Part shown: positions 35,382 to 43,943 of the stretch, in pieces
Position numbering within the stretch: the first letter of the stretch is position 1
Layout: each line of letters begins with the position of its first letter
Source: Eubacterium sp.
Lineage (GTDB): Bacteria; Bacillota; Clostridia; Oscillospirales; Acutalibacteraceae
Assembly: GCA_017458975.1 (NCBI GenBank)
Contig: JAFSZK010000057.1
Span: 11,978 to 75,977, forward strand
Length of the DNA: 64,000 nt
Direction: 5' to 3'
Translations under genes and position numbers: made by a program
Notes under the pieces: model-generated
Databases searched by the model: none
Told to the model about the DNA's origin: nothing
The model's input: the letters and a program-made list of their open reading frames with translations, nothing else

Positions 35382-38201
35382 ATGGCAGACAAAATGTTAG
35401 GCTATGCTCCCGAGTGGACCTATGATGATTCCATTCCGATTCGTGAGCCGATAATGAAGCTTGGCAAAATGATTACCGACAGAATTCCGATTGTTCTCGG
35501 CGTTCGCAAAATCACCAAGCAGGACCCCGAATACTGGGCAGTAGCAACGATTTGCCCCACCGATGAGATGGCTGAGATAGCACTGCGTATGAAAAAGCGC
35601 AATCCGCGTACTCTCGCCGATATGAAAAAGCTCACCGCTAATATGAATCTCAGCGACTCTATTGAGAATCTTCTTGAGCAAATGAGCGAAAACGGTCTTA
35701 TCGAGTGGAACTATGAAAACGAACAGCATGAAAAGCAGTGGGTGCTTCCTATGTTCGTGCCCGGTTCAGCCGAGTTCTCAAATATGAACAGCGAGATGCT
35801 CGAAAAGCATCCCGAGCTCGGTATGTTCTTTGAAAGAATGACCCGACTTCCTCTTGAAAAGGTAACTCCTATGGTGCCTCCCGGAGGCGGCGGAATAGGA
35901 ATGCACGTTATTCCCGTTGAAAAAGCTATTGAGATGGAAAACGAGGCAATAGGCCTTGAAAAGATTTCTCACTGGCTTGATAAATATGACGGAAAATATG
36001 CCGCTTCTCCCTGCTCCTGCCGTGCGTCAAGAAAGACCTACGGAGAAGGCTGTGCCGACGACCCTGAGGGTTGGTGCGTTGCAGTAGGCGATATGGCTGA
36101 CTATGTTGTTGAAACCAAGAAGGGCGGCCATTACATAACAAGAGAGCAGGCGCTTGAAATCTTTAAGCAGGGCGAGGAAAACGGCTTCGTTCACCAGATT
36201 ACAAATATCGACGGCGAAGACAAAATCTTTGCTATTTGTAACTGTAACGTAAATGTGTGCTATGCACTTCGTACGTCACAGCTCTTCAACACCCCGAATA
36301 TGTCGCGTTCGGCTTACGTTGCAAACGTTAAGAAAGAAAACTGCGTTGCCTGCGGACGCTGCGTTGAGCATTGCCCGGCAGGTGCGTTAAAGCTCGGCCA
36401 GAAGCTTTGCAAAAAGGACGGCAGCGAGGTTACTTATCCCAAGCAGGAATTACCCGATACAGTTAAATGGGGTCCCGAAAAATGGGAAGAGGAATACAGG
36501 GATAAGAACAGAATTAACTCCCACGAGTCGGGTACCGCTCCGTGTAAGACGGCGTGTCCCGCTCATATCGCTATCCAGGGTTATCTTAAGATGGCGGCTC
36601 AGGGAAGATATGAGGACGCTCTTGCTCTTATAAAGAAAGAAAATCCCTTCCCCGCAGTTTGCGGTCATATCTGTAACAAGCGCTGCGAAGAGGCTTGTAC
36701 AAGAGGTACGGTTGACGAGGCTATCGCAATTGACGACGTAAAGAAATTCCTCGCTCACCGCGATATGGATAATAAGACAAGACTCATCCCCAAGAAGGTT
36801 ATTCCGAAGATTACCGTTGACGGCGTATTTGACCGTGAGCCCGGCTTTACCGAAAAGGTTGCTATTATCGGCGCAGGTCCCGCAGGACTTTCATGTGCGT
36901 TCTTCCTTGCCGAAAAGGGCTATCTTAACGTAACGGTATTTGAAAAGAATAAGGAGCCCGGCGGAATGCTTCGTTACGGTATTCCTAACTACAAGCTCGA
37001 AAAAGAGGTTATTGACGCTGAGATTGATATCATCCGCGAAATGGGCGTTGAGATTAAATGCGGCGTTGAGATTGGTAAGGATATTACCCTTGACGAGCTT
37101 CGTGAGCAGGGCTATAAAGCATTTTATATGGCAATCGGCGCACAGGACGGAAGAAAAGCAGGCGTTGAAGGCGAGGACGCACAGGGCGTGCTCACCGCTG
37201 TTGAATTCCTCCACGAGGCTGCCGAAAAGGAAGCATACGATATCGGTAAAAACGTTGTTGTAGTCGGCGGCGGTAACGTTGCTATTGACGCAGCAAGAGT
37301 AAGCGCGCACTGCGGAGCTGAAAATGTTTCAATGTTCTGTCTTGAGAGCAGAGAGGAAATGCCTGCTGCCGAGGACGAGATTGAAGAGGCTATGGAAGAC
37401 GGCGCAACCATTAACTGCGGCTGGGGTCCGAAGGAAATCCTTAAGGACGATAACGGCAAGGTTAAGGCTATCGTGTTTAAAAAGTGCTTATCCGTATTTG
37501 ACGAGGAGCACCGTTTCTCGCCGAAGTATGACGAAAACGATACAAAGACCGTTGAGTGCGAAAACGTTATTCTTTCAATCGGTCAGGCTATTGAGTGGGG
37601 CGGACTTCTTGAGGGAAGCGCAGTTGAGCTTAACCGTAATATGACGGCTCAGGCTGACTCATTTACCTTCCAGACCGCTCAGCCCGATATCTTCGTAGGC
37701 GGCGACGCTCTTACCGGACCGCGCTTTGCTATTGACGCAATCGCAATGGGTAAGGAAGGCGCAATCTCGATTCACAGATTTGTTCAGCCCAATTCAACTC
37801 TTACAATCGGACGTAACCCGAGATACTACGTTGAGCTTGATAAGGATGACCTCACCCTTGAGGGCTACGATACGGCTCACCGCCAGGTACCCAAGGCAAC
37901 CAGGAAGGTTGACAAGATGGGCTTTAAGGACGATTATAAGATGCTTACCGAGGAGCAGGTTAAGATTGAAACAAACCGCTGTCTCGGATGCGGCGCAACA
38001 ATCGTTGACGCAAACCGTTGTATCGGATGCGGCGTATGTACAACCAAGTGTGAATTCGACGCAATCTATCTCAAGAGAGAAAGACCCGAATGCTCAACCA
38101 TGTACAGAGCCGAGGATAAGCTCAAGGCAATTCTTCCTTATACTGTCAAGAGAGAATTTGCAATTAAGAAAGCTAACCGTGCTGCTAAAAAAGGCAATTA
38201 A
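35382..38201 (+). CDS. Multidomain Fe-S/FAD/NAD(P) oxidoreductase (Cys-rich N-domain, ferredoxin motifs, GltD/NfnB-like flavoprotein)
   Basis: CSCR..C..C and ICNCNVNVC; CVACGRCVEHCP; PCKTACP..VCGHICNKRCEEAC; GAGPAG; GGGNVAID; CIGCGVCTTKC. Confidence 0.85.
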   Translation: MADKMLGYAPEWTYDDSIPIREPIMKLGKMITDRIPIVLGVRKITKQDPEYWAVATICPTDEMAEIALRMKKRNPRTLADMKKLTANMNLSDSIENLLEQMSENGLIEWNYENEQHEKQWVLPMFVPGSAEFSNMNSEMLEKHPELGMFFERMTRLPLEKVTPMVPPGGGGIGMHVIPVEKAIEMENEAIGLEKISHWLDKYDGKYAASPCSCRASRKTYGEGCADDPEGWCVAVGDMADYVVETKKGGHYITREQALEIFKQGEENGFVHQITNIDGEDKIFAICNCNVNVCYALRTSQLFNTPNMSRSAYVANVKKENCVACGRCVEHCPAGALKLGQKLCKKDGSEVTYPKQELPDTVKWGPEKWEEEYRDKNRINSHESGTAPCKTACPAHIAIQGYLKMAAQGRYEDALALIKKENPFPAVCGHICNKRCEEACTRGTVDEAIAIDDVKKFLAHRDMDNKTRLIPKKVIPKITVDGVFDREPGFTEKVAIIGAGPAGLSCAFFLAEKGYLNVTVFEKNKEPGGMLRYGIPNYKLEKEVIDAEIDIIREMGVEIKCGVEIGKDITLDELREQGYKAFYMAIGAQDGRKAGVEGEDAQGVLTAVEFLHEAAEKEAYDIGKNVVVVGGGNVAIDAARVSAHCGAENVSMFCLESREEMPAAEDEIEEAMEDGATINCGWGPKEILKDDNGKVKAIVFKKCLSVFDEEHRFSPKYDENDTKTVECENVILSIGQAIEWGGLLEGSAVELNRNMTAQADSFTFQTAQPDIFVGGDALTGPRFAIDAIAMGKEGAISIHRFVQPNSTLTIGRNPRYYVELDKDDLTLEGYDTAHRQVPKATRKVDKMGFKDDYKMLTEEQVKIETNRCLGCGATIVDANRCIGCGVCTTKCEFDAIYLKRERPECSTMYRAEDKLKAILPYTVKREFAIKKANRAAKKGN

Positions 38202-38203
38202 TA

Positions 38204-38548
38204 ATGCACGAGCTCGGAATAGTTTTTCATATTATTAAAACAATCGAAGAGGTGGCTGAGGAGCAAAGCCTTACAAAGGTGTCCTCCGTCACCCTTGAGG
38301 TTGGCGAGGTTTCAACCGTAATTATCGAATATCTCGAGGACTGCTGGGTATGGGCTTGCAAAAAAAGCGAGCTTATGAAGGACTCAAAGCTGAAGCACGA
38401 GATTGTTAAGGGCGTTACCTACTGCGAGAATTGCGGTAAAACCTATGAAACCGTTAAATACGCTAAAATCTGTCCTTACTGTAACTCGGAAAATACCTAT
38501 CTTATTCAGGGAAACGAGGTACAGATTAAGGAAATTGAAGCTCAGTAA
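38204..38548 (+). CDS. hypA: HypA/HybF-family nickel metallochaperone
   Basis: N-terminal MHE Ni-binding motif, two CxxC (CENC, CPYC), G.E..IKEIE end. Confidence 0.92.
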   Translation: MHELGIVFHIIKTIEEVAEEQSLTKVSSVTLEVGEVSTVIIEYLEDCWVWACKKSELMKDSKLKHEIVKGVTYCENCGKTYETVKYAKICPYCNSENTYLIQGNEVQIKEIEAQ

Positions 38549-38609
38549 AGTTCTTTCCGGCTCTTTTTAAGAACCGCAAATATATTTTTCTTACAGGAGG
38601 AAAAACATC

Positions 38610-39707
38610 ATGGGAATGTTATTCCAGATTTACGGTGATACAAGCATCTGGCAGCTTGTCGGATGGTGTCTTGCTTTCACCGGACTCGTTGTTGCTAATG
38701 AAATAGCACGACGCACCAAGATAGGCGGTATTTTCTGCTTTATCGTTTTACCCTCAGCCCTTACGGTTTACTTTATTGCAATCAACATTGCAGCCAAATC
38801 AGGCGCTGAATGGGCAGTAAACAACCCGACAATTGTTCAGATGAACGGTTGGTTCCACTATGCAAAGCTCTATGCGGCAACAGTCGGCTGTATCGGCTTT
38901 ATGATTCTTAAATATCAGTGGGGCAGCCTCGGAAAGAGCCATTGGTTCAAGGCTTATCCGTTCCTTATTGTTGGTATTAACATCCTTATCGCGGTTGCTT
39001 CCGACTTCGAATCTGCAGTAAAAGGTATGCAGATTGGCGGAATGCAAGGCGGCTGGTGGTATTCATCAGAAGGCGTATGGCTTTACGGCGGCTGGTGGAA
39101 TATCCTCAACGGTATCGCGGGCTTAATCAACATTATGTGTATGACCGGCTGGTGGGGAATCTACTCCTCGAAAGACCAGAAGGATATGCTCTGGCCCGAT
39201 ATGACCTGGCAGTTCATCCTTGCATACGATGTTTGGAACTTTGAGTATACTTACCTCAATCTTCCTCTTCACACCTGGTACTGCGGTGTTGCACTTCTTC
39301 TTGCACCGACCTTTGCAAACCTCTTCTGGAACAAGGGCGGCTGGATTCAGAACCGTGCAAACACTCTTGCACTCTGGTGTATGTTCGCTCAGGTTGTTCC
39401 CGGATTCCAGAACCACTCACGTTTCACAACTCTTCCCACAGTTTACAAAGCAGCAGAGAGATTTGCTACCGGCGCTGACGGAAGAATGAATCCTGACCTC
39501 GTTCTCAGCGCTTCCGACGCTAACCCGACAGCTCAGGGCGTAGTTGCTATTCTTGCTATCGCTGTTAATGTTCTTGTTATTACAAACATTATTAAGAGAG
39601 CTAAGGAGCAGAAGAAGAATCCGTATAAGAACGAAATCTTTGCTGATACAAAAGACTTCAAGCTTGCTCTTGAAAGAGCAGCTGCAGCTAATAAAGAGGT
39701 AGCATAA
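38610..39707 (+). CDS. Multi-pass membrane protein, DUF5692-like
   Basis: Trp-rich TM protein with WFHYAKLY, NILIAVASDFE, DMLWPDMTW and WIQNRANTL; family recognised from memory. Confidence 0.6.
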   Translation: MGMLFQIYGDTSIWQLVGWCLAFTGLVVANEIARRTKIGGIFCFIVLPSALTVYFIAINIAAKSGAEWAVNNPTIVQMNGWFHYAKLYAATVGCIGFMILKYQWGSLGKSHWFKAYPFLIVGINILIAVASDFESAVKGMQIGGMQGGWWYSSEGVWLYGGWWNILNGIAGLINIMCMTGWWGIYSSKDQKDMLWPDMTWQFILAYDVWNFEYTYLNLPLHTWYCGVALLLAPTFANLFWNKGGWIQNRANTLALWCMFAQVVPGFQNHSRFTTLPTVYKAAERFATGADGRMNPDLVLSASDANPTAQGVVAILAIAVNVLVITNIIKRAKEQKKNPYKNEIFADTKDFKLALERAAAANKEVA

Positions 39708-39747: not shown

Positions 39748-42273
39748 TTATGCCGTAACTATATCGTTTGCGCTTTGTAAGCCGAGCTTTTTAACCGCGT
39801 CCTCGCGCATCTGGTACTTAAGGATTTTACCCGCTGCGTTCATCGGGAAAGCGTCAACAAAATCAACGTATCTCGGAACCTTATGCCTTGCCATGCTTGC
39901 TCCGACAAAATCCTTCATTTCCTGTTCGGTCATACTTTCGCCTTCTTTAAGGATGACGCAAGCCATAATCTCCTCGCCGTACTGCTCGTCGGGTACGCCG
40001 ATAACCTGAACGTCGCTTACCTTCGGGTTGGTGTAAATAAATTCCTCAATCTCCTTGGGATAAATATTTTCACCGCCGCGGATAATCATATCCTTAAGAC
40101 GTCCCGTAATCTTATAGTTTCCGTCGGGCGTCTTACACGCAAGGTCGCCCGTATGGAGCCAGCCGTCCTTGTCAATAGCTTCGCTCGTTGCCTTGGGCAT
40201 CTTGTAGTAGCCCTTCATAATATTGTAGCCCCTTGCAAGGAATTCGCCCGGTACGTCGTACGGACACTCCTCGCCCGTTTCGGGGTCAACAATTTTACAC
40301 TCAATCTCGGGCATTGCGCGTCCTACGGTTGCAACGCGAACCTCAAGCGGGTCGTCAGTCGAGCTCATAGTACAGCCCGGTGACGCCTCGGTCTGACCGT
40401 ATACGATTACGATTTCGGTCATATTCATTTTATTTACAACGTCCTGCATTGCCGAAATAGGACAGGGGCTGCCCGCCATAATTCCCGTTCTCATATACGA
40501 AAAGTCGGTCTTTTCAAAATCGGGATGCTCAAGCAATGCGATAAACATTGTAGGTACGCCGTGAAAGGCGGTAATATGCTCGTTATTAATACACGCAAGC
40601 GACGGCTTGGGTGAAAAATACGGAATAGGAAGCAGCGTTCCGCCGTGGGTCATAGTCGACGTCATTGCAAGCACCATACCGAAGCAGTGGAACATCGGAA
40701 CCTGAATCATCATTCTGTCCGCGGTAGACAAATCCATTCTGTCGCCTATGCACTTTCCGTTATTAACAATATTATAATGGGTAAGCATAACTCCCTTCGG
40801 GAAGCCCGTTGTACCCGAGGTGTACTGCATATTGCATACGTCGTCGGGCTTAACAGCTGCCGCCATTGCGTAAACCTTTTCCTTATTAACCCTGCTTGCA
40901 TATTCAAGCGCTTCGTTCCATTCGATACAGCCCTTTTGCTTAAAGCCGACGGTAATAACGTTACGAAGGAAGGGAAGGCGCTTGCTGTGAAGCTGTTCGC
41001 CCTTCTTTGTATTTTCAAGCTCGGGGCACAAACGCGCAATAATATCGCCGTAGCTCGTGTCCTTTGCTCCCTCGGTAATAACAAGGGTGTGGGTATCGCT
41101 CTGTTTTAAAAGGTATTCCGCCTCGGCAATTTTATAAGCGGTATTAACCGTTACAAGAACCGCGCCGATTTTTACCGTAGCCCAGAAGGTGATAAACCAC
41201 TGTGGAACGTTTGACGCCCATATCGCAACGTGGCTTCCCGCCTTAACGCCCATTGAAATCAGCACTCTTGCAAATTCGTCAACGTCGTCGCGGAATTCGC
41301 TGTAGGTTCTTGTATAATCAAGGGTTGTGTATTTAAACGCATACTGGTCGGGGAATTCTTCAACCATACGGTCAAGCACCTCGCCGAAGGTCTTTTCAAT
41401 AAGAAGGTCCTTTTTCCAAACGCATCTTCCCGTATGGGTTCTGTTATAGTAAAGGGTCTTTTCCTTGCCCGCGGTATAGTTAAACTGCTTCATAAAGTTT
41501 ACGAAATGGGCAAAGATAATTTCCATATCGTCAAGCTCCTCGCACCATCTCGGGTCCCATACAAGCGAGGTAAAGCCGTCAAAGTTAACGCTTCTTAAAG
41601 CAAGCATAATTTCCTTAAGCGGAAGCTCACCCTCACCGATTAAGCAGTATTCAAAGCCTTCGTCGCTCTTTCTGCAATCGGTAAGCTGGACATGTTTAAC
41701 GTAAGCTCCGAGATTTGTAATAATCGTATCGGGGTTTTCGCCTACGCTCTGATATGCCTCGGCTACGTTCCAAAGAGCCGCAAGGCTGTCGCTTGCAAAA
41801 TTCTCAAGAATATCGCGAAGGTTCGAGGTATCGGCAAACATACCCTTTGTTTCAATTAAAACTACTACTCCCTTTGCTTCGGCAAGGGGAACTATTTTTT
41901 CGAGCATTTCGGTAACAAAGGCAAAGCTCTTTTCAGTTTTTTCGCCGTGCTCCGCTCTTACTCTTATATAAGGAATATGAAGATTGCCCGCAACGTTAAG
42001 GCACGCCTCAACCTCCTTCATTGTATCCTCTGCTTTTTCGGTATCCGAAATGTCGCAAATCGTATCCATACACGCAAGGGAAAGCTTTTTTTCATAGAGC
42101 TTCCTTAACGTAGCGTTAGCCGTATAATCGTGGAACGCTCCGTCCTTGTCGGTAAAAAGAGGGTTATGGATATTATGAAGCTCTATACCCTTAAAGCCTA
42201 AATCTACGGCTGTGTTACAGAAATCGTCAAAGCTGATTCCGTACCAGCCCTTAGTTGAAAACGAAAGCTTCAT
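39748..42273 (-). CDS. Fusion of a degenerate xylose-isomerase-like TIM barrel and an acyl-CoA synthetase (AMP-binding)
   Basis: N-terminal roughly 265 aa MKLSFST..GFKGIEL..IET..KHVQLTD..GEGELP (AP-endonuclease-2-like). C-terminal part has intact YTSGTTGFPKG, YGQTE, WLHTGD, IIRGGENIYP and GKILK. Confidence 0.88.
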   Translation of the reverse strand: MKLSFSTKGWYGISFDDFCNTAVDLGFKGIELHNIHNPLFTDKDGAFHDYTANATLRKLYEKKLSLACMDTICDISDTEKAEDTMKEVEACLNVAGNLHIPYIRVRAEHGEKTEKSFAFVTEMLEKIVPLAEAKGVVVLIETKGMFADTSNLRDILENFASDSLAALWNVAEAYQSVGENPDTIITNLGAYVKHVQLTDCRKSDEGFEYCLIGEGELPLKEIMLALRSVNFDGFTSLVWDPRWCEELDDMEIIFAHFVNFMKQFNYTAGKEKTLYYNRTHTGRCVWKKDLLIEKTFGEVLDRMVEEFPDQYAFKYTTLDYTRTYSEFRDDVDEFARVLISMGVKAGSHVAIWASNVPQWFITFWATVKIGAVLVTVNTAYKIAEAEYLLKQSDTHTLVITEGAKDTSYGDIIARLCPELENTKKGEQLHSKRLPFLRNVITVGFKQKGCIEWNEALEYASRVNKEKVYAMAAAVKPDDVCNMQYTSGTTGFPKGVMLTHYNIVNNGKCIGDRMDLSTADRMMIQVPMFHCFGMVLAMTSTMTHGGTLLPIPYFSPKPSLACINNEHITAFHGVPTMFIALLEHPDFEKTDFSYMRTGIMAGSPCPISAMQDVVNKMNMTEIVIVYGQTEASPGCTMSSTDDPLEVRVATVGRAMPEIECKIVDPETGEECPYDVPGEFLARGYNIMKGYYKMPKATSEAIDKDGWLHTGDLACKTPDGNYKITGRLKDMIIRGGENIYPKEIEEFIYTNPKVSDVQVIGVPDEQYGEEIMACVILKEGESMTEQEMKDFVGASMARHKVPRYVDFVDAFPMNAAGKILKYQMREDAVKKLGLQSANDIVTA

Positions 42274-43652
42274 TAATTTTCCTCCTCATAAACAATTTTA
42301 TTAATTGCATTGAGATATGCTCTGATGCTTGCGCCGATAATATCGGTTGAAATACCGTTGCCCGAATAGAGCTTTGAGCCCGAGCGAAGCTTAACAACAG
42401 CAGAGCCCATTGCCTCCTTACCCTCGGTAACGGCCTGAATCTGAAAATCATCAAGCTCATAGTGGCTTCCGATAATGGAGTCAATTGCAATAAAGGACGC
42501 GTCAATCGGTCCGTCGCCGAGCTTAATGCTCTCAAGCGTTTCGCCGTCCTTTTCAAGAACGATATGCGCGCTTGCGGTTATGATATTTCCGTTATTTATA
42601 ATATAGCTGACAAGCTTATAAGCCGACGGAACCTGAAGCGCGGCGGAGGCTACTATTGCGTCAAGCTCCTTTGCTCCGACGTTCTTCTTATTTGCAACGC
42701 GGAGAAATTCCTTATATACCTTGCCCCCGTCCTCATCGGAAAGGTCGTAGCCGAGCTTTTTAACGGCTGAAAGAACAGTCTCCTCGGTATCGGATTTATC
42801 AAGTCTTATTCCCTCGAACTCCGTACTTACCGTAACGGTTGTCCTGTCGTTTTTAGCGTTGTCGGTAATCCAGTTAATCTGGGATACGATTCGGTTAAGC
42901 TCGGTATATTTAAGGCTTGACTTAATACCGTAGTCAATACCGTAGTCCTTAATAATTGAGCCGAAGGTATCAAGCTCGGTTGTATCTCCGCCGACTGCGC
43001 ACTTAACGCAGGCAGCGCCGTTTCTTACGGCAAGAATAGCCTGAGCCGCCGCAAGACCCGTCTTATTATTACATTTAATGCCGATGGGCACGCCCGTATT
43101 TTCGATTACCTCCTTAACAAAGCAGGCAAAATCGTCGGGAAGCATCGAACCCGCCGTATCGCATACGGTAATCTTATCCGCGCCCGCGTCGGTAGCCTTT
43201 TTAATTGCTTCGTAAAGAAAATCGCGCTCCGCTCTTGTTGCGTCAACGGCGCAAAATTCAACGCCGTTTTTTGTTTGCCCCGCTTTCTTTACGGTAAGCT
43301 CAATCCAGCTGAGCATTTTAGCCGGCTTTTTATGACAGGTATACTCCATTCCCACGGGAGATACGGGAAGCTCAATTCTTATAACGCCTTTCTTCGCCTT
43401 ATCAAGCGCCTCGGCAGCAAAGTCAATACTCTCCTCGCTCATACCTGCCGCAACGGAAAGAACACCGTTATTGACAAATGCCGAAACAGTGCGCAGTAAT
43501 AGAACGTCTGTTTTTTCGTTTTCGATTTCGGGAAATTCGATAATATCGACATTTAGCTTTTCAAGCTGACGCGCAATTTCAATTTTCTCTTTAAAAGAGA
43601 AGGAGTTGTTTTCTCTGCACAATGTTGTGTCTGCAATTTTAATGCCTTTCAT
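42273..43652 (-). CDS. 2-isopropylmalate synthase-like protein with eroded active site and intact LeuA regulatory domain
   Basis: IADTTLCRE, DATRA, DTAG and KCNNKTGLAAA in the barrel; C-terminal GDGPIDA..QAVTEG.EAMG..SGNGISTDIIGASIRAYLNA. Start MKGIK at 43652 (AAAGGA RBS). Confidence 0.85.
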   Translation of the reverse strand: MKGIKIADTTLCRENNSFSFKEKIEIARQLEKLNVDIIEFPEIENEKTDVLLLRTVSAFVNNGVLSVAAGMSEESIDFAAEALDKAKKGVIRIELPVSPVGMEYTCHKKPAKMLSWIELTVKKAGQTKNGVEFCAVDATRAERDFLYEAIKKATDAGADKITVCDTAGSMLPDDFACFVKEVIENTGVPIGIKCNNKTGLAAAQAILAVRNGAACVKCAVGGDTTELDTFGSIIKDYGIDYGIKSSLKYTELNRIVSQINWITDNAKNDRTTVTVSTEFEGIRLDKSDTEETVLSAVKKLGYDLSDEDGGKVYKEFLRVANKKNVGAKELDAIVASAALQVPSAYKLVSYIINNGNIITASAHIVLEKDGETLESIKLGDGPIDASFIAIDSIIGSHYELDDFQIQAVTEGKEAMGSAVVKLRSGSKLYSGNGISTDIIGASIRAYLNAINKIVYEEEN

Positions 43653-43671
43653 AGTATTCTTCCTTTCGATA

Positions 43672-43922
43672 TAAAATAATAAAGTCCCCGAGCCTATGCT
43701 CAGGGACGGGATAAACCGCGGTACCACCCTAATTGACCTTAAGGTCCTCTCAGCGAGATTCCATCAAATCTCCTGCCATGATAACGGGGCAATCCGTAGC
43801 CGCTTACTTATTCGGCGGCTCTGCTCGGGAACGAGACTTGGTATCCGCTCGCGCTGTCTTACACCGACCGACAGCTCTCTTTGCCGAGTTGAGAATAACA
43901 ATTAATTCCGTCATTGCATTTG
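43672..43922 (-). ncRNA. T-box riboswitch, likely Leu specifier (CUC)
   Basis: On the minus strand: stem I with AGAGAG and GGUGUAA motifs, CUC at 43835-43833, stem II with AGUA, CCGUUA, T-box AAUUAGGGUGGUACCGCG (43734-43717), and terminator hairpin 43707-43684 with a U tract. Confidence 0.92.
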
Positions 43923-43943
43923 GGTTTTATTTGATTGCAAACT

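Follow-up and report, generated by a model that had tools for sequence, protein, structure and literature searches.

2-Isopropylmalate synthase (LeuA) is one of the DRE-TIM enzymes, and its catalysis requires the residues of the D-R-E motif, the HxH motif and related positions. Two groups of LeuA descendants, the methylthioalkylmalate (MAM) synthases and the plant/apple citramalate synthases, are known to have kept catalysis and lost the allosteric domain. Among dedicated regulatory subunits, HisZ is a catalytically dead paralogue of histidyl-tRNA synthetase that serves as the histidine-sensing subunit of the short-form ATP phosphoribosyltransferase HisG, and IlvN/IlvH is the small valine-binding subunit of acetohydroxyacid synthase, with an ACT-type fold that is not enzyme-derived. 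Allison and co-workers, moreover, are said to have described how rumen bacteria form leucine from isovalerate by reductive carboxylation. Here we analyze a LeuA-like gene in a 64,000-nucleotide stretch of DNA (hereafter the window; contig JAFSZK010000057.1, positions 11,978 to 75,977) from the Eubacterium sp. assembly GCA_017458975.1, a metagenome-assembled genome (MAG) of 1.85 Mb that is 90% complete. Like the MAM and citramalate synthases its product is a diverged LeuA paralogue; it is, however, their mirror image, having lost the catalytic features and kept the allosteric domain. We propose, with a probability of about one half, that this protein, itself non-catalytic, is a subunit of a ligase that activates isovalerate for reductive carboxylation to leucine, and that it senses leucine or acts as a scaffold there.

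By fold and descent the 459-residue protein is a LeuA. It shares with the short-form bacterial enzymes (TIGR00973/NF002086) the fold, the succession of barrel, linker and allosteric domain, and the leucine-loop motifs. Profile searches with Pfam recover an HMGL-like domain (PF00682, 1e-30, residues 14-222) and a LeuA_dimer domain (PF08502, 2e-29, 102 bits, residues 327-453), the latter covering profile positions 4-130 of 131. An AlphaFold2 model, with a mean predicted local distance difference test score of 81.6, has a barrel of eight strands, followed by a short helical linker and a C-terminal domain of the alpha/beta type. In Foldseek comparisons its barrel superposes on LeuA catalytic domains (3ewb: template modelling score 0.90, root-mean-square deviation 1.9 Å) and the full chain matches the LeuA of M. 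tuberculosis (3hps and the leucine-bound 3fig, E ~1e-21), the top match being the MAM1 structure 6e1j. By its catalytic features, curated scores and pathway context, however, the protein is not a functional member of the family. It is 33% identical to a genuine LeuA and about 45 residues shorter, and lies far under the cut-offs of all NCBIfam LeuA equivalog models: the best of these, NF002086, gives 270.5 bits against a cut-off of 532, and TIGR00973 gives 238.5 bits against 598.7, as compared to 722 and 670 bits, respectively, for a genuine LeuA used as control (P0265). Unlike LeuA, furthermore, it is encoded in the absence of leuBCD and always paired with an acyl-CoA ligase.

Alignment with genuine LeuA localizes the losses. 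Residues 8-14 read DTTLCRE as against DTTLRDGEQ, i.e. the Asp is kept, the Arg replaced and GEQ removed in a deletion of about four residues; residues 193-197 read KCNNK as against the metal-ligand motif HCH[ND]D, both metal His being gone; residues 220-227 read VGGDTTEL as against GIGERAGNA; and the FLHESGIHQDG segment of genuine LeuA has no counterpart, the alignment showing a gap at residues 268/269. The C-terminal motifs GDGPIDA (379-385), VTEGKEAMG and GISTDIIGASIRAYLNAINK, on the other hand, are kept and align throughout. An initial annotation, made from the sequence alone, had reported these same four alterations together with a well-kept C-terminal domain and an intact reading frame with a good ribosome-binding site, and on all these points the alignment, the 102-bit match to PF08502 and the uninterrupted frame agree with it. 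Its broader statement that every catalytic signature had been lost holds for the Arg, both metal His, the GERAGN Asn and the subdomain-I His motif; it does not hold for D8, the first Asp of the D-R-E trio and metal Asp, or for the barrel Glu E132, both of which are retained. A new cysteine-based metal or iron-sulfur (Fe-S) site in the barrel (C12, C106, C134, C164 and C194) was also considered and rejected, given that these Cys are invariant among close relatives only and not in the wider family.

The LeuA-like gene forms a two-gene operon with a gene for an 841-residue fusion protein, in which a xylose isomerase-like TIM domain precedes an AMP-forming acyl-CoA ligase domain (Table 1). The start codon of the fusion gene overlaps the stop codon of the LeuA-like gene (TAATG), and at every locus with enough downstream sequence a TIM::ligase gene comes directly after the LeuA-like gene, including the loci of members only 39-48% identical. 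The intergenic gap has a median of 3 nt, with a 4-nt overlap in 12 loci, and the fusion gene is predicted to be translationally coupled to the LeuA-like gene. Across loci the ligase domain is 69-93% identical and far more conserved than either the LeuA-like protein or the TIM domain; the copy encoded in the window reaches 694 bits on NCBIfam NF009233, below the cut-off of 832. The TIM domain in turn has degenerate metal motifs, which in the fusion of the source genome read N-V-A-E, HVQLTD and SLVWD. Fusions of the same architecture that occur independently of the LeuA-like gene keep the metal motifs LVETNG, WD-I-HH (D-I-H-H), H-I-K-D and SLEW, whereas the LeuA-linked clade shows at the same positions LIETKG, WN-V-AE/SE, HVH..D or HVQLTD, and SLVWD. 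The metal motifs are kept without the LeuA-like gene and lost with it, so that the loss of the metal site goes together with the occurrence of a LeuA-like partner. The operon encodes two TIM barrels, both degenerate, grouped around a single ligase of high conservation. Two otherwise normal operons show a single in-frame stop in the TIM::ligase gene (TGA in G005:C22:31256-33712 and TAA in G065:C27:33537-36038), which could be sequencing errors or recent inactivations.

Table 1. Coordinates of the operon, its leader and the domains of its products (positions in the window)
Feature	Position	Strand	Remarks
T-box leader (tRNA-sensing riboswitch)	43699..43923	-	directly upstream of the LeuA-like gene; Rfam RF00230
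Ribosome-binding site GAAAGGAA of the LeuA-like gene	43660..43667	-	7 nt before ATG 43652; read from the sequence
LeuA-like pseudo-isopropylmalate synthase gene (protein P0001, 459 aa)	42273..43652	-	ATG at 43652, TAA at 42273-42275
Degenerate DRE-TIM barrel, residues 1-225	42978..43652	-	DTTLCRE at 43611-43631, KCNNK at 43062-43076
Shortened linker, residues 226-325	42678..42977	-	without GxGERAGN and the HxSGIHQDG subdomain-I motif; low-confidence loop 268-278
LeuA allosteric/dimerisation domain, residues 326-459	42276..42677	-	GDGPIDA loop at 42498-42518
Xylose isomerase-like TIM domain, fusion protein P0122 residues 1-285	41419..42273	-	Pfam PF01261, 1e-19; degenerate metal motifs
AMP-forming acyl-CoA ligase domain, P0122 residues 286-841	39748..41418	-	Pfam AMP-binding 5e-93 and AMP-binding_C

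The leader of this operon points to control by leucine supply. It matches the T-box model with 108.4 bits (gathering score 93) over the full length of 1-219, has the T-box sequence AGGGUGGUACCGCGG at 43716-43730, shows UGGU in the T-box bulge and presents in its specifier loop (..AAG-U-CUC-G-UUCC) the Leu codon CUC at 43833-43835, followed by a purine. The 67 homologous leaders that we aligned have CUC in 66 cases and CUG, likewise a Leu codon, in one (L063). Since the base preceding the specifier varies between U and C, the reading frame of the specifier is fixed. Five further leaders, detected by Rfam only and in three cases belonging to distant family members, also have CUC, so that a Leu specifier (CUC or CUG) is found in 72/72 aligned leaders. 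A T-box is present at 74 of the 79 loci with sufficient upstream sequence. Genuine leuA can be preceded by the same type of leader: a genome of the same genus (G019), which has no LeuA-like gene, encodes leuB and a long-form leuA behind a CUC T-box.

Contextual information from the wider gene neighborhoods suggests what the ligase might contribute. In about 35 of the 80 loci retrieved, genes for the three subunits (alpha, beta and gamma) of a 2-oxoacid:ferredoxin oxidoreductase and for IlvE lie directly upstream, together with genes for a helix-turn-helix (HTH)-cupin acyl-CoA synthetase and a P-loop protein of 220 aa. On the VorB model NF005507, with its cut-off of 399 bits, the alpha subunit of the oxidoreductase reaches 552; IlvE reaches 491 bits on its own model (cut-off 307). 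The occurrence of a Leu T-box operon for a TIM::ligase next to genes for a VorB-type oxidoreductase and IlvE points to leucine synthesis from isovalerate. In the scheme that we propose, uncharged tRNA-Leu would allow transcription of the two-gene operon via the T-box; the ligase would then activate isovalerate, which is abundant in the gut and rumen, to isovaleryl-CoA; the VorB-type oxidoreductase would reductively carboxylate this to 2-oxoisocaproate; and IlvE would transaminate the latter to leucine, in place of the missing leuABCD route. The LeuA-like protein would dimerise and bind leucine through its allosteric domain, and may dock on the ligase, probably via the degenerate TIM domain of the latter, thereby providing fast leucine feedback or a scaffold. 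The double control by T-box and allostery that is seen in genuine, and presumably ancestral, LeuA would thereby be retained and applied to a different first enzyme. An upstream ligase gene at some locus edges was considered as a second copy of the TIM::ligase and rejected: it is the HTH-cupin acyl-CoA synthetase, with 27% identity.

This scheme agrees with the described route from isovalerate in two respects, namely the habitat, given that the carriers of the LeuA-like gene are rumen and gut Oscillospirales MAGs, and the enzymes, given that acyl activation, a 2-oxoacid:ferredoxin oxidoreductase and a transaminase are all encoded together in LeuA-like loci. It differs in that no described version of the route has a LeuA-like subunit or a T-box. 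The isovalerate route of rumen bacteria is mentioned in PMC7356843; in the literature that we searched we found no gene assignment for it. The proposed regulatory logic is that of HisZ, in which an amino acid-binding enzyme paralogue loses catalysis and becomes an allosteric subunit of the first committed enzyme, with the difference that fold and partner are others and that complex formation and allostery, which we infer for the LeuA-like protein, are proven for HisZ. The proposed role also resembles that of IlvN, as a separate polypeptide that confers end-product feedback in a branched-chain pathway and is encoded beside the catalytic gene; unlike IlvN with its ACT-type fold, the LeuA-like protein descends from an enzyme.

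To better understand the provenance of this protein, we collected its relatives. A word-indexed search returned thousands, of which the top 120 are 63-85% identical and 457-475 aa long; the genome matches of the family number at least 590. Among representatives of clusters at 50% identity, an exhaustive HMMER search yielded about 106 full-length single-stretch members of 453-497 aa, down to 33% identity, with genuine LeuAs (502-516 aa) appearing only at about 213 bits. The family spans 33-85% identity and at least 13 GTDB families, and genomes down to 1.1 Mb in size retain it. All of the carriers seen are MAGs, and a cluster look-up of ten family members likewise gave MAG records only. Existing names for these genes range from 'hypothetical protein' to '2-isopropylmalate synthase', which the JGI pipelines give to some members, the most specific name from PGAP being 'alpha-isopropylmalate synthase regulatory domain-containing protein'. 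We searched the literature on isovalerate and leucine, LeuA pseudoenzymes, T-boxes with leuA, and R. bromii without finding the family described.

The two halves of the protein show very different patterns of conservation among the 106 representatives. The formerly catalytic positions vary freely: neither HxH position is ever His, the first being E, Q or S and the second S, N or A, and position 12, that of the Arg, is R in 34, K in 26 and C in 18. The allosteric domain, by comparison, has G379, G381, D437, A449 and N451 invariant (106/106) and P382, D384 and A385 kept in 99/106, and the GxGPxDA leucine-loop and STD..A..AY.NA.NK motifs are 93-100% conserved. Positions G379 and G381 correspond to those of the G462D-type feedback-resistant mutations of E. 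coli. A role as leucine sensor or scaffold, as suggested by the initial annotation, would fit these data because the leucine-loop motifs are near-invariant, the T-box is specific for Leu and the coupling to the ligase is tight. Selection acts on the entire operon. The median ratio of nonsynonymous to synonymous substitution (dN/dS) is 0.110 for the barrel, 0.114 for the linker, 0.046 for the allosteric domain, 0.075 for the partner TIM domain and 0.027 for the ligase (Nei-Gojobori, 49 pairs with dS < 1.5, which are non-independent and none of them near 1). Frames are intact in all 80 fetched homologue loci and in all 33 matches at the order level. Purifying selection and intact frames across the family therefore identify it as a selected one rather than a relic, and the conclusion that the LeuA-like gene encodes a selected pseudoenzyme and is not decaying is well supported. 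The initial annotation had anticipated this and had called for the alignment and per-domain dN/dS given above. Its view is sustained by clade-wide motif loss, by intact frames, by dN/dS values of 0.05-0.11 and by the lack of leuB in most carriers; homologues riddled with frameshifts, which it had named beforehand as speaking against selection, are absent from the 80 loci and the 33 order-level matches.

The phyletic pattern places the operon in relation to the conventional leucine pathway. Sixty-one genomes of the same GTDB family, each at least 90% complete, comprise 12 with the LeuA-like gene, 39 with leuB, 10 with neither and 0 with both. Similarly, the LeuA-like gene is found in 33 of 151 genomes sampled from the order (in 13 of 26 families) and leuB in 82, with both in a single genome, G156 (Fisher p = 2e-12, uncorrected for relatedness). 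This near-exclusion suggests that the operon replaces the isopropylmalate pathway rather than supplementing it. We suggest, more tentatively than the role of the protein itself, that these genes may represent an undescribed and widespread leucine-supply module of gut and rumen Oscillospirales that replaces leuABCD, in which two dead TIM barrels around a ligase would make isovalerate activation leucine-sensitive under a T-box inherited from the ancestral leuA. The copy in the leuB-positive genome G156 (L122, G156:C2:50806-52218) retains the first His of the HxH motif (..GMHLRDN..) and the Arg after DISL; it is clustered with P-loop, oxidoreductase, IlvE and TIM::ligase genes, has no T-box, and may represent an intermediate state. 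A group II intron domain match (43 bits) was also noted at L125:11177-11242 (G050:C9), at the end of a contig with a canonical leuA-leuB cluster.

Several observations weigh against the proposal that the LeuA-like protein is a leucine-responsive subunit of an isovalerate-activating ligase. Some members of the ligase family have no LeuA-like partner, which is therefore not required for ligase activity. No tRNA-Leu(GAG), the match to CUC, is present among the 35 tRNAs that ARAGORN found in the incomplete source assembly, the tRNA-Leu anticodons recovered being CAA, TAA, CAG and TAG. In the source genome the oxidoreductase cluster lies on a different contig (C89) behind a T-box of its own, with the specifier AUC, which is probably Ile. 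An Amidohydro_2 gene, found as the third operon gene directly after the ligase in 59/80 loci, and the P-loop protein encoded at many loci have no role in a simple four-step pathway. Finally, the face of the barrel that once held the active site keeps the invariant polar residues D8, S98, E103, Y104, K109, E132, D137, R140 and D165, which would fit a new ligand-binding or catalytic role as well.

The last of these observations leads to an account in which the barrel has been repurposed to bind or convert an intermediate such as isovaleryl-CoA, 2-oxoisocaproate or CoA, with the allosteric domain still sensing leucine. Such a barrel might pass the acyl-CoA on from ligase to oxidoreductase, or catalyse a metal-independent step involving the Amidohydro_2 enzyme, whose gene is part of most of the operons. 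K109 (106/106), E103 (105/106) and Y104 (103/106) are specific to the family and, like D8, E132, D137, R140 and D165, lie at the C-terminal ends of barrel strands; a dN/dS of 0.11 implies clear constraint on the barrel, and position 12 is still Arg in about a third of the representatives (34/106). Pairing of a DRE-TIM barrel with a CoA-dependent partner enzyme is known, for instance from DmpG/DmpF, and structures of this aldolase-dehydrogenase complex are among the Foldseek matches of the model. However, most of the conserved barrel motifs (TS...EY, EF..DATR and DT.G) are a legacy of LeuA and perhaps serve folding only, the metal ligands and the capping subdomain are missing in all members, and the free variation of the once-catalytic positions is what relaxed constraint would produce. 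On balance we consider repurposing of the barrel unlikely, if deserving of serious attention.

A second alternative concerns the ligase rather than its partner. The operon might be a leucine-starvation operon in which the LeuA-like protein is a leucine-responsive partner of a ligase acting on another leucine precursor or on an unrelated acid. Substrate specificity is not readable from the sequence: the best model is that of a generic 'fatty acid CoA ligase family', with a score under its cut-off, and the PDB relatives of the ligase have many different substrates. Stand-alone TIM::ligases, which occur in leuB-positive genomes without a LeuA-like gene and without a T-box, have a ligase domain 70-76% identical to that of the LeuA-linked clade, and separate HTH-cupin acyl-CoA synthetases are encoded in the same clusters. 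Taken together, however, the adjacency of VorB-type and IlvE genes, the Leu T-box and the exclusion of leuB fit isovalerate best, and its reductive carboxylation to leucine is established physiology in rumen bacteria. A different substrate thus appears improbable. The stand-alone subfamily is found at loci L116-L121 (genomes G008, G045, G035, G001, G046 and G026).

Far less probable is that the protein still works as a 2-isopropylmalate or citramalate synthase by means of unconventional residues. D8, E132 and the threonine of DT.G are retained and, as noted, some members are named accordingly by the JGI pipelines; but the protein lacks both metal His, the Arg, the GERAGN Asn and the HxSGIHQDG segment, and the scores on the equivalog models are less than half the cut-offs used for LeuA. 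Moreover, carriers lack leuB, and in the 90% complete source genome we looked for leuB, leuCD, ilvC, ilvD and a second LeuA_dimer domain and found none. With the downstream pathway genes missing, the product of such a synthase would be useless. Candidates for LeuCD and LeuB on contigs C39 and C106 of that genome were rejected as an aconitase of the PRK07229 type (507 bits) and an isocitrate dehydrogenase-like protein, the latter scoring 140 bits as leuB against a cut-off of 353 and being followed by a Rex gene. The only other HMGL-like gene of that genome (C23) was likewise rejected as a hidden LeuA, as it is of the oxaloacetate decarboxylase-alpha/transcarboxylase-5S type and lies beside a carboxyltransferase. 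As for a functionless, decaying leuA relic, the gene does sit in genomes that lost the rest of the leucine pathway, but its intact frames in all loci, low dN/dS, spread over divergent families and into small genomes, and constant association with the same partner gene and T-box mean that the selection analysis effectively refutes this reading.

Some further observations concern the neighboring genes and the LeuA family at large. The cluster on contig C89 of the source genome (L095, C89:20448-26261) comprises the AUC T-box followed by genes for the HTH-cupin acyl-CoA synthetase, the 220-aa P-loop protein and the VorB-type alpha, beta and gamma subunits; an AUC T-box also heads the equivalent cluster in L108, L109 and L111, which suggests a parallel route from 2-methylbutyrate to isoleucine. 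The Amidohydro_2 protein is 268 aa long with a DAHCH metal motif (L008-L083, e.g. L039:5402-6208). It is missing from the operon in the window, and its best match in the source genome, at 29% identity, lies on contig C19 beside another AMP-ligase and an oxidoreductase gamma-like gene. Convergent to the operon, positions 35382-39707 (+) of the window encode, according to Pfam, a 939-aa Fe-S/GltD-like flavoprotein, HypA and a DUF5692 membrane protein; we saw no hydrogenase there. Outside the family, a full-length LeuA homologue of 511 aa (P0258) has damaged motifs (DTTLCDGEQ, IRAYNDL for HCHND, and GIGKRAGC) and may be an independent instance of LeuA degeneration.

These findings bear on the interpretation of gut and rumen genomes in several ways. 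Under the label '2-isopropylmalate synthase', hundreds of species of the gut and rumen would be mistakenly assigned a step of the leucine pathway. The operon with its neighbors offers a concrete and testable set of genes for the synthesis of leucine from isovalerate. The dependence of rumen bacteria on cross-fed isovalerate has been known physiologically for decades, and such a gene set would be relevant to models of the exchange of branched-chain fatty acids and amino acids in gut communities. In evolutionary terms, the allosteric domain of LeuA has here outlived the catalytic domain and has apparently been recruited to another enzyme, an outcome opposite to that in MAM synthase, with a second dead TIM domain appearing alongside the LeuA-like protein. 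If the suggested leucine-supply module is real, this would be the first gene-level assignment of Allison's pathway from isovalerate to leucine, and a new example of the principle embodied by HisZ.

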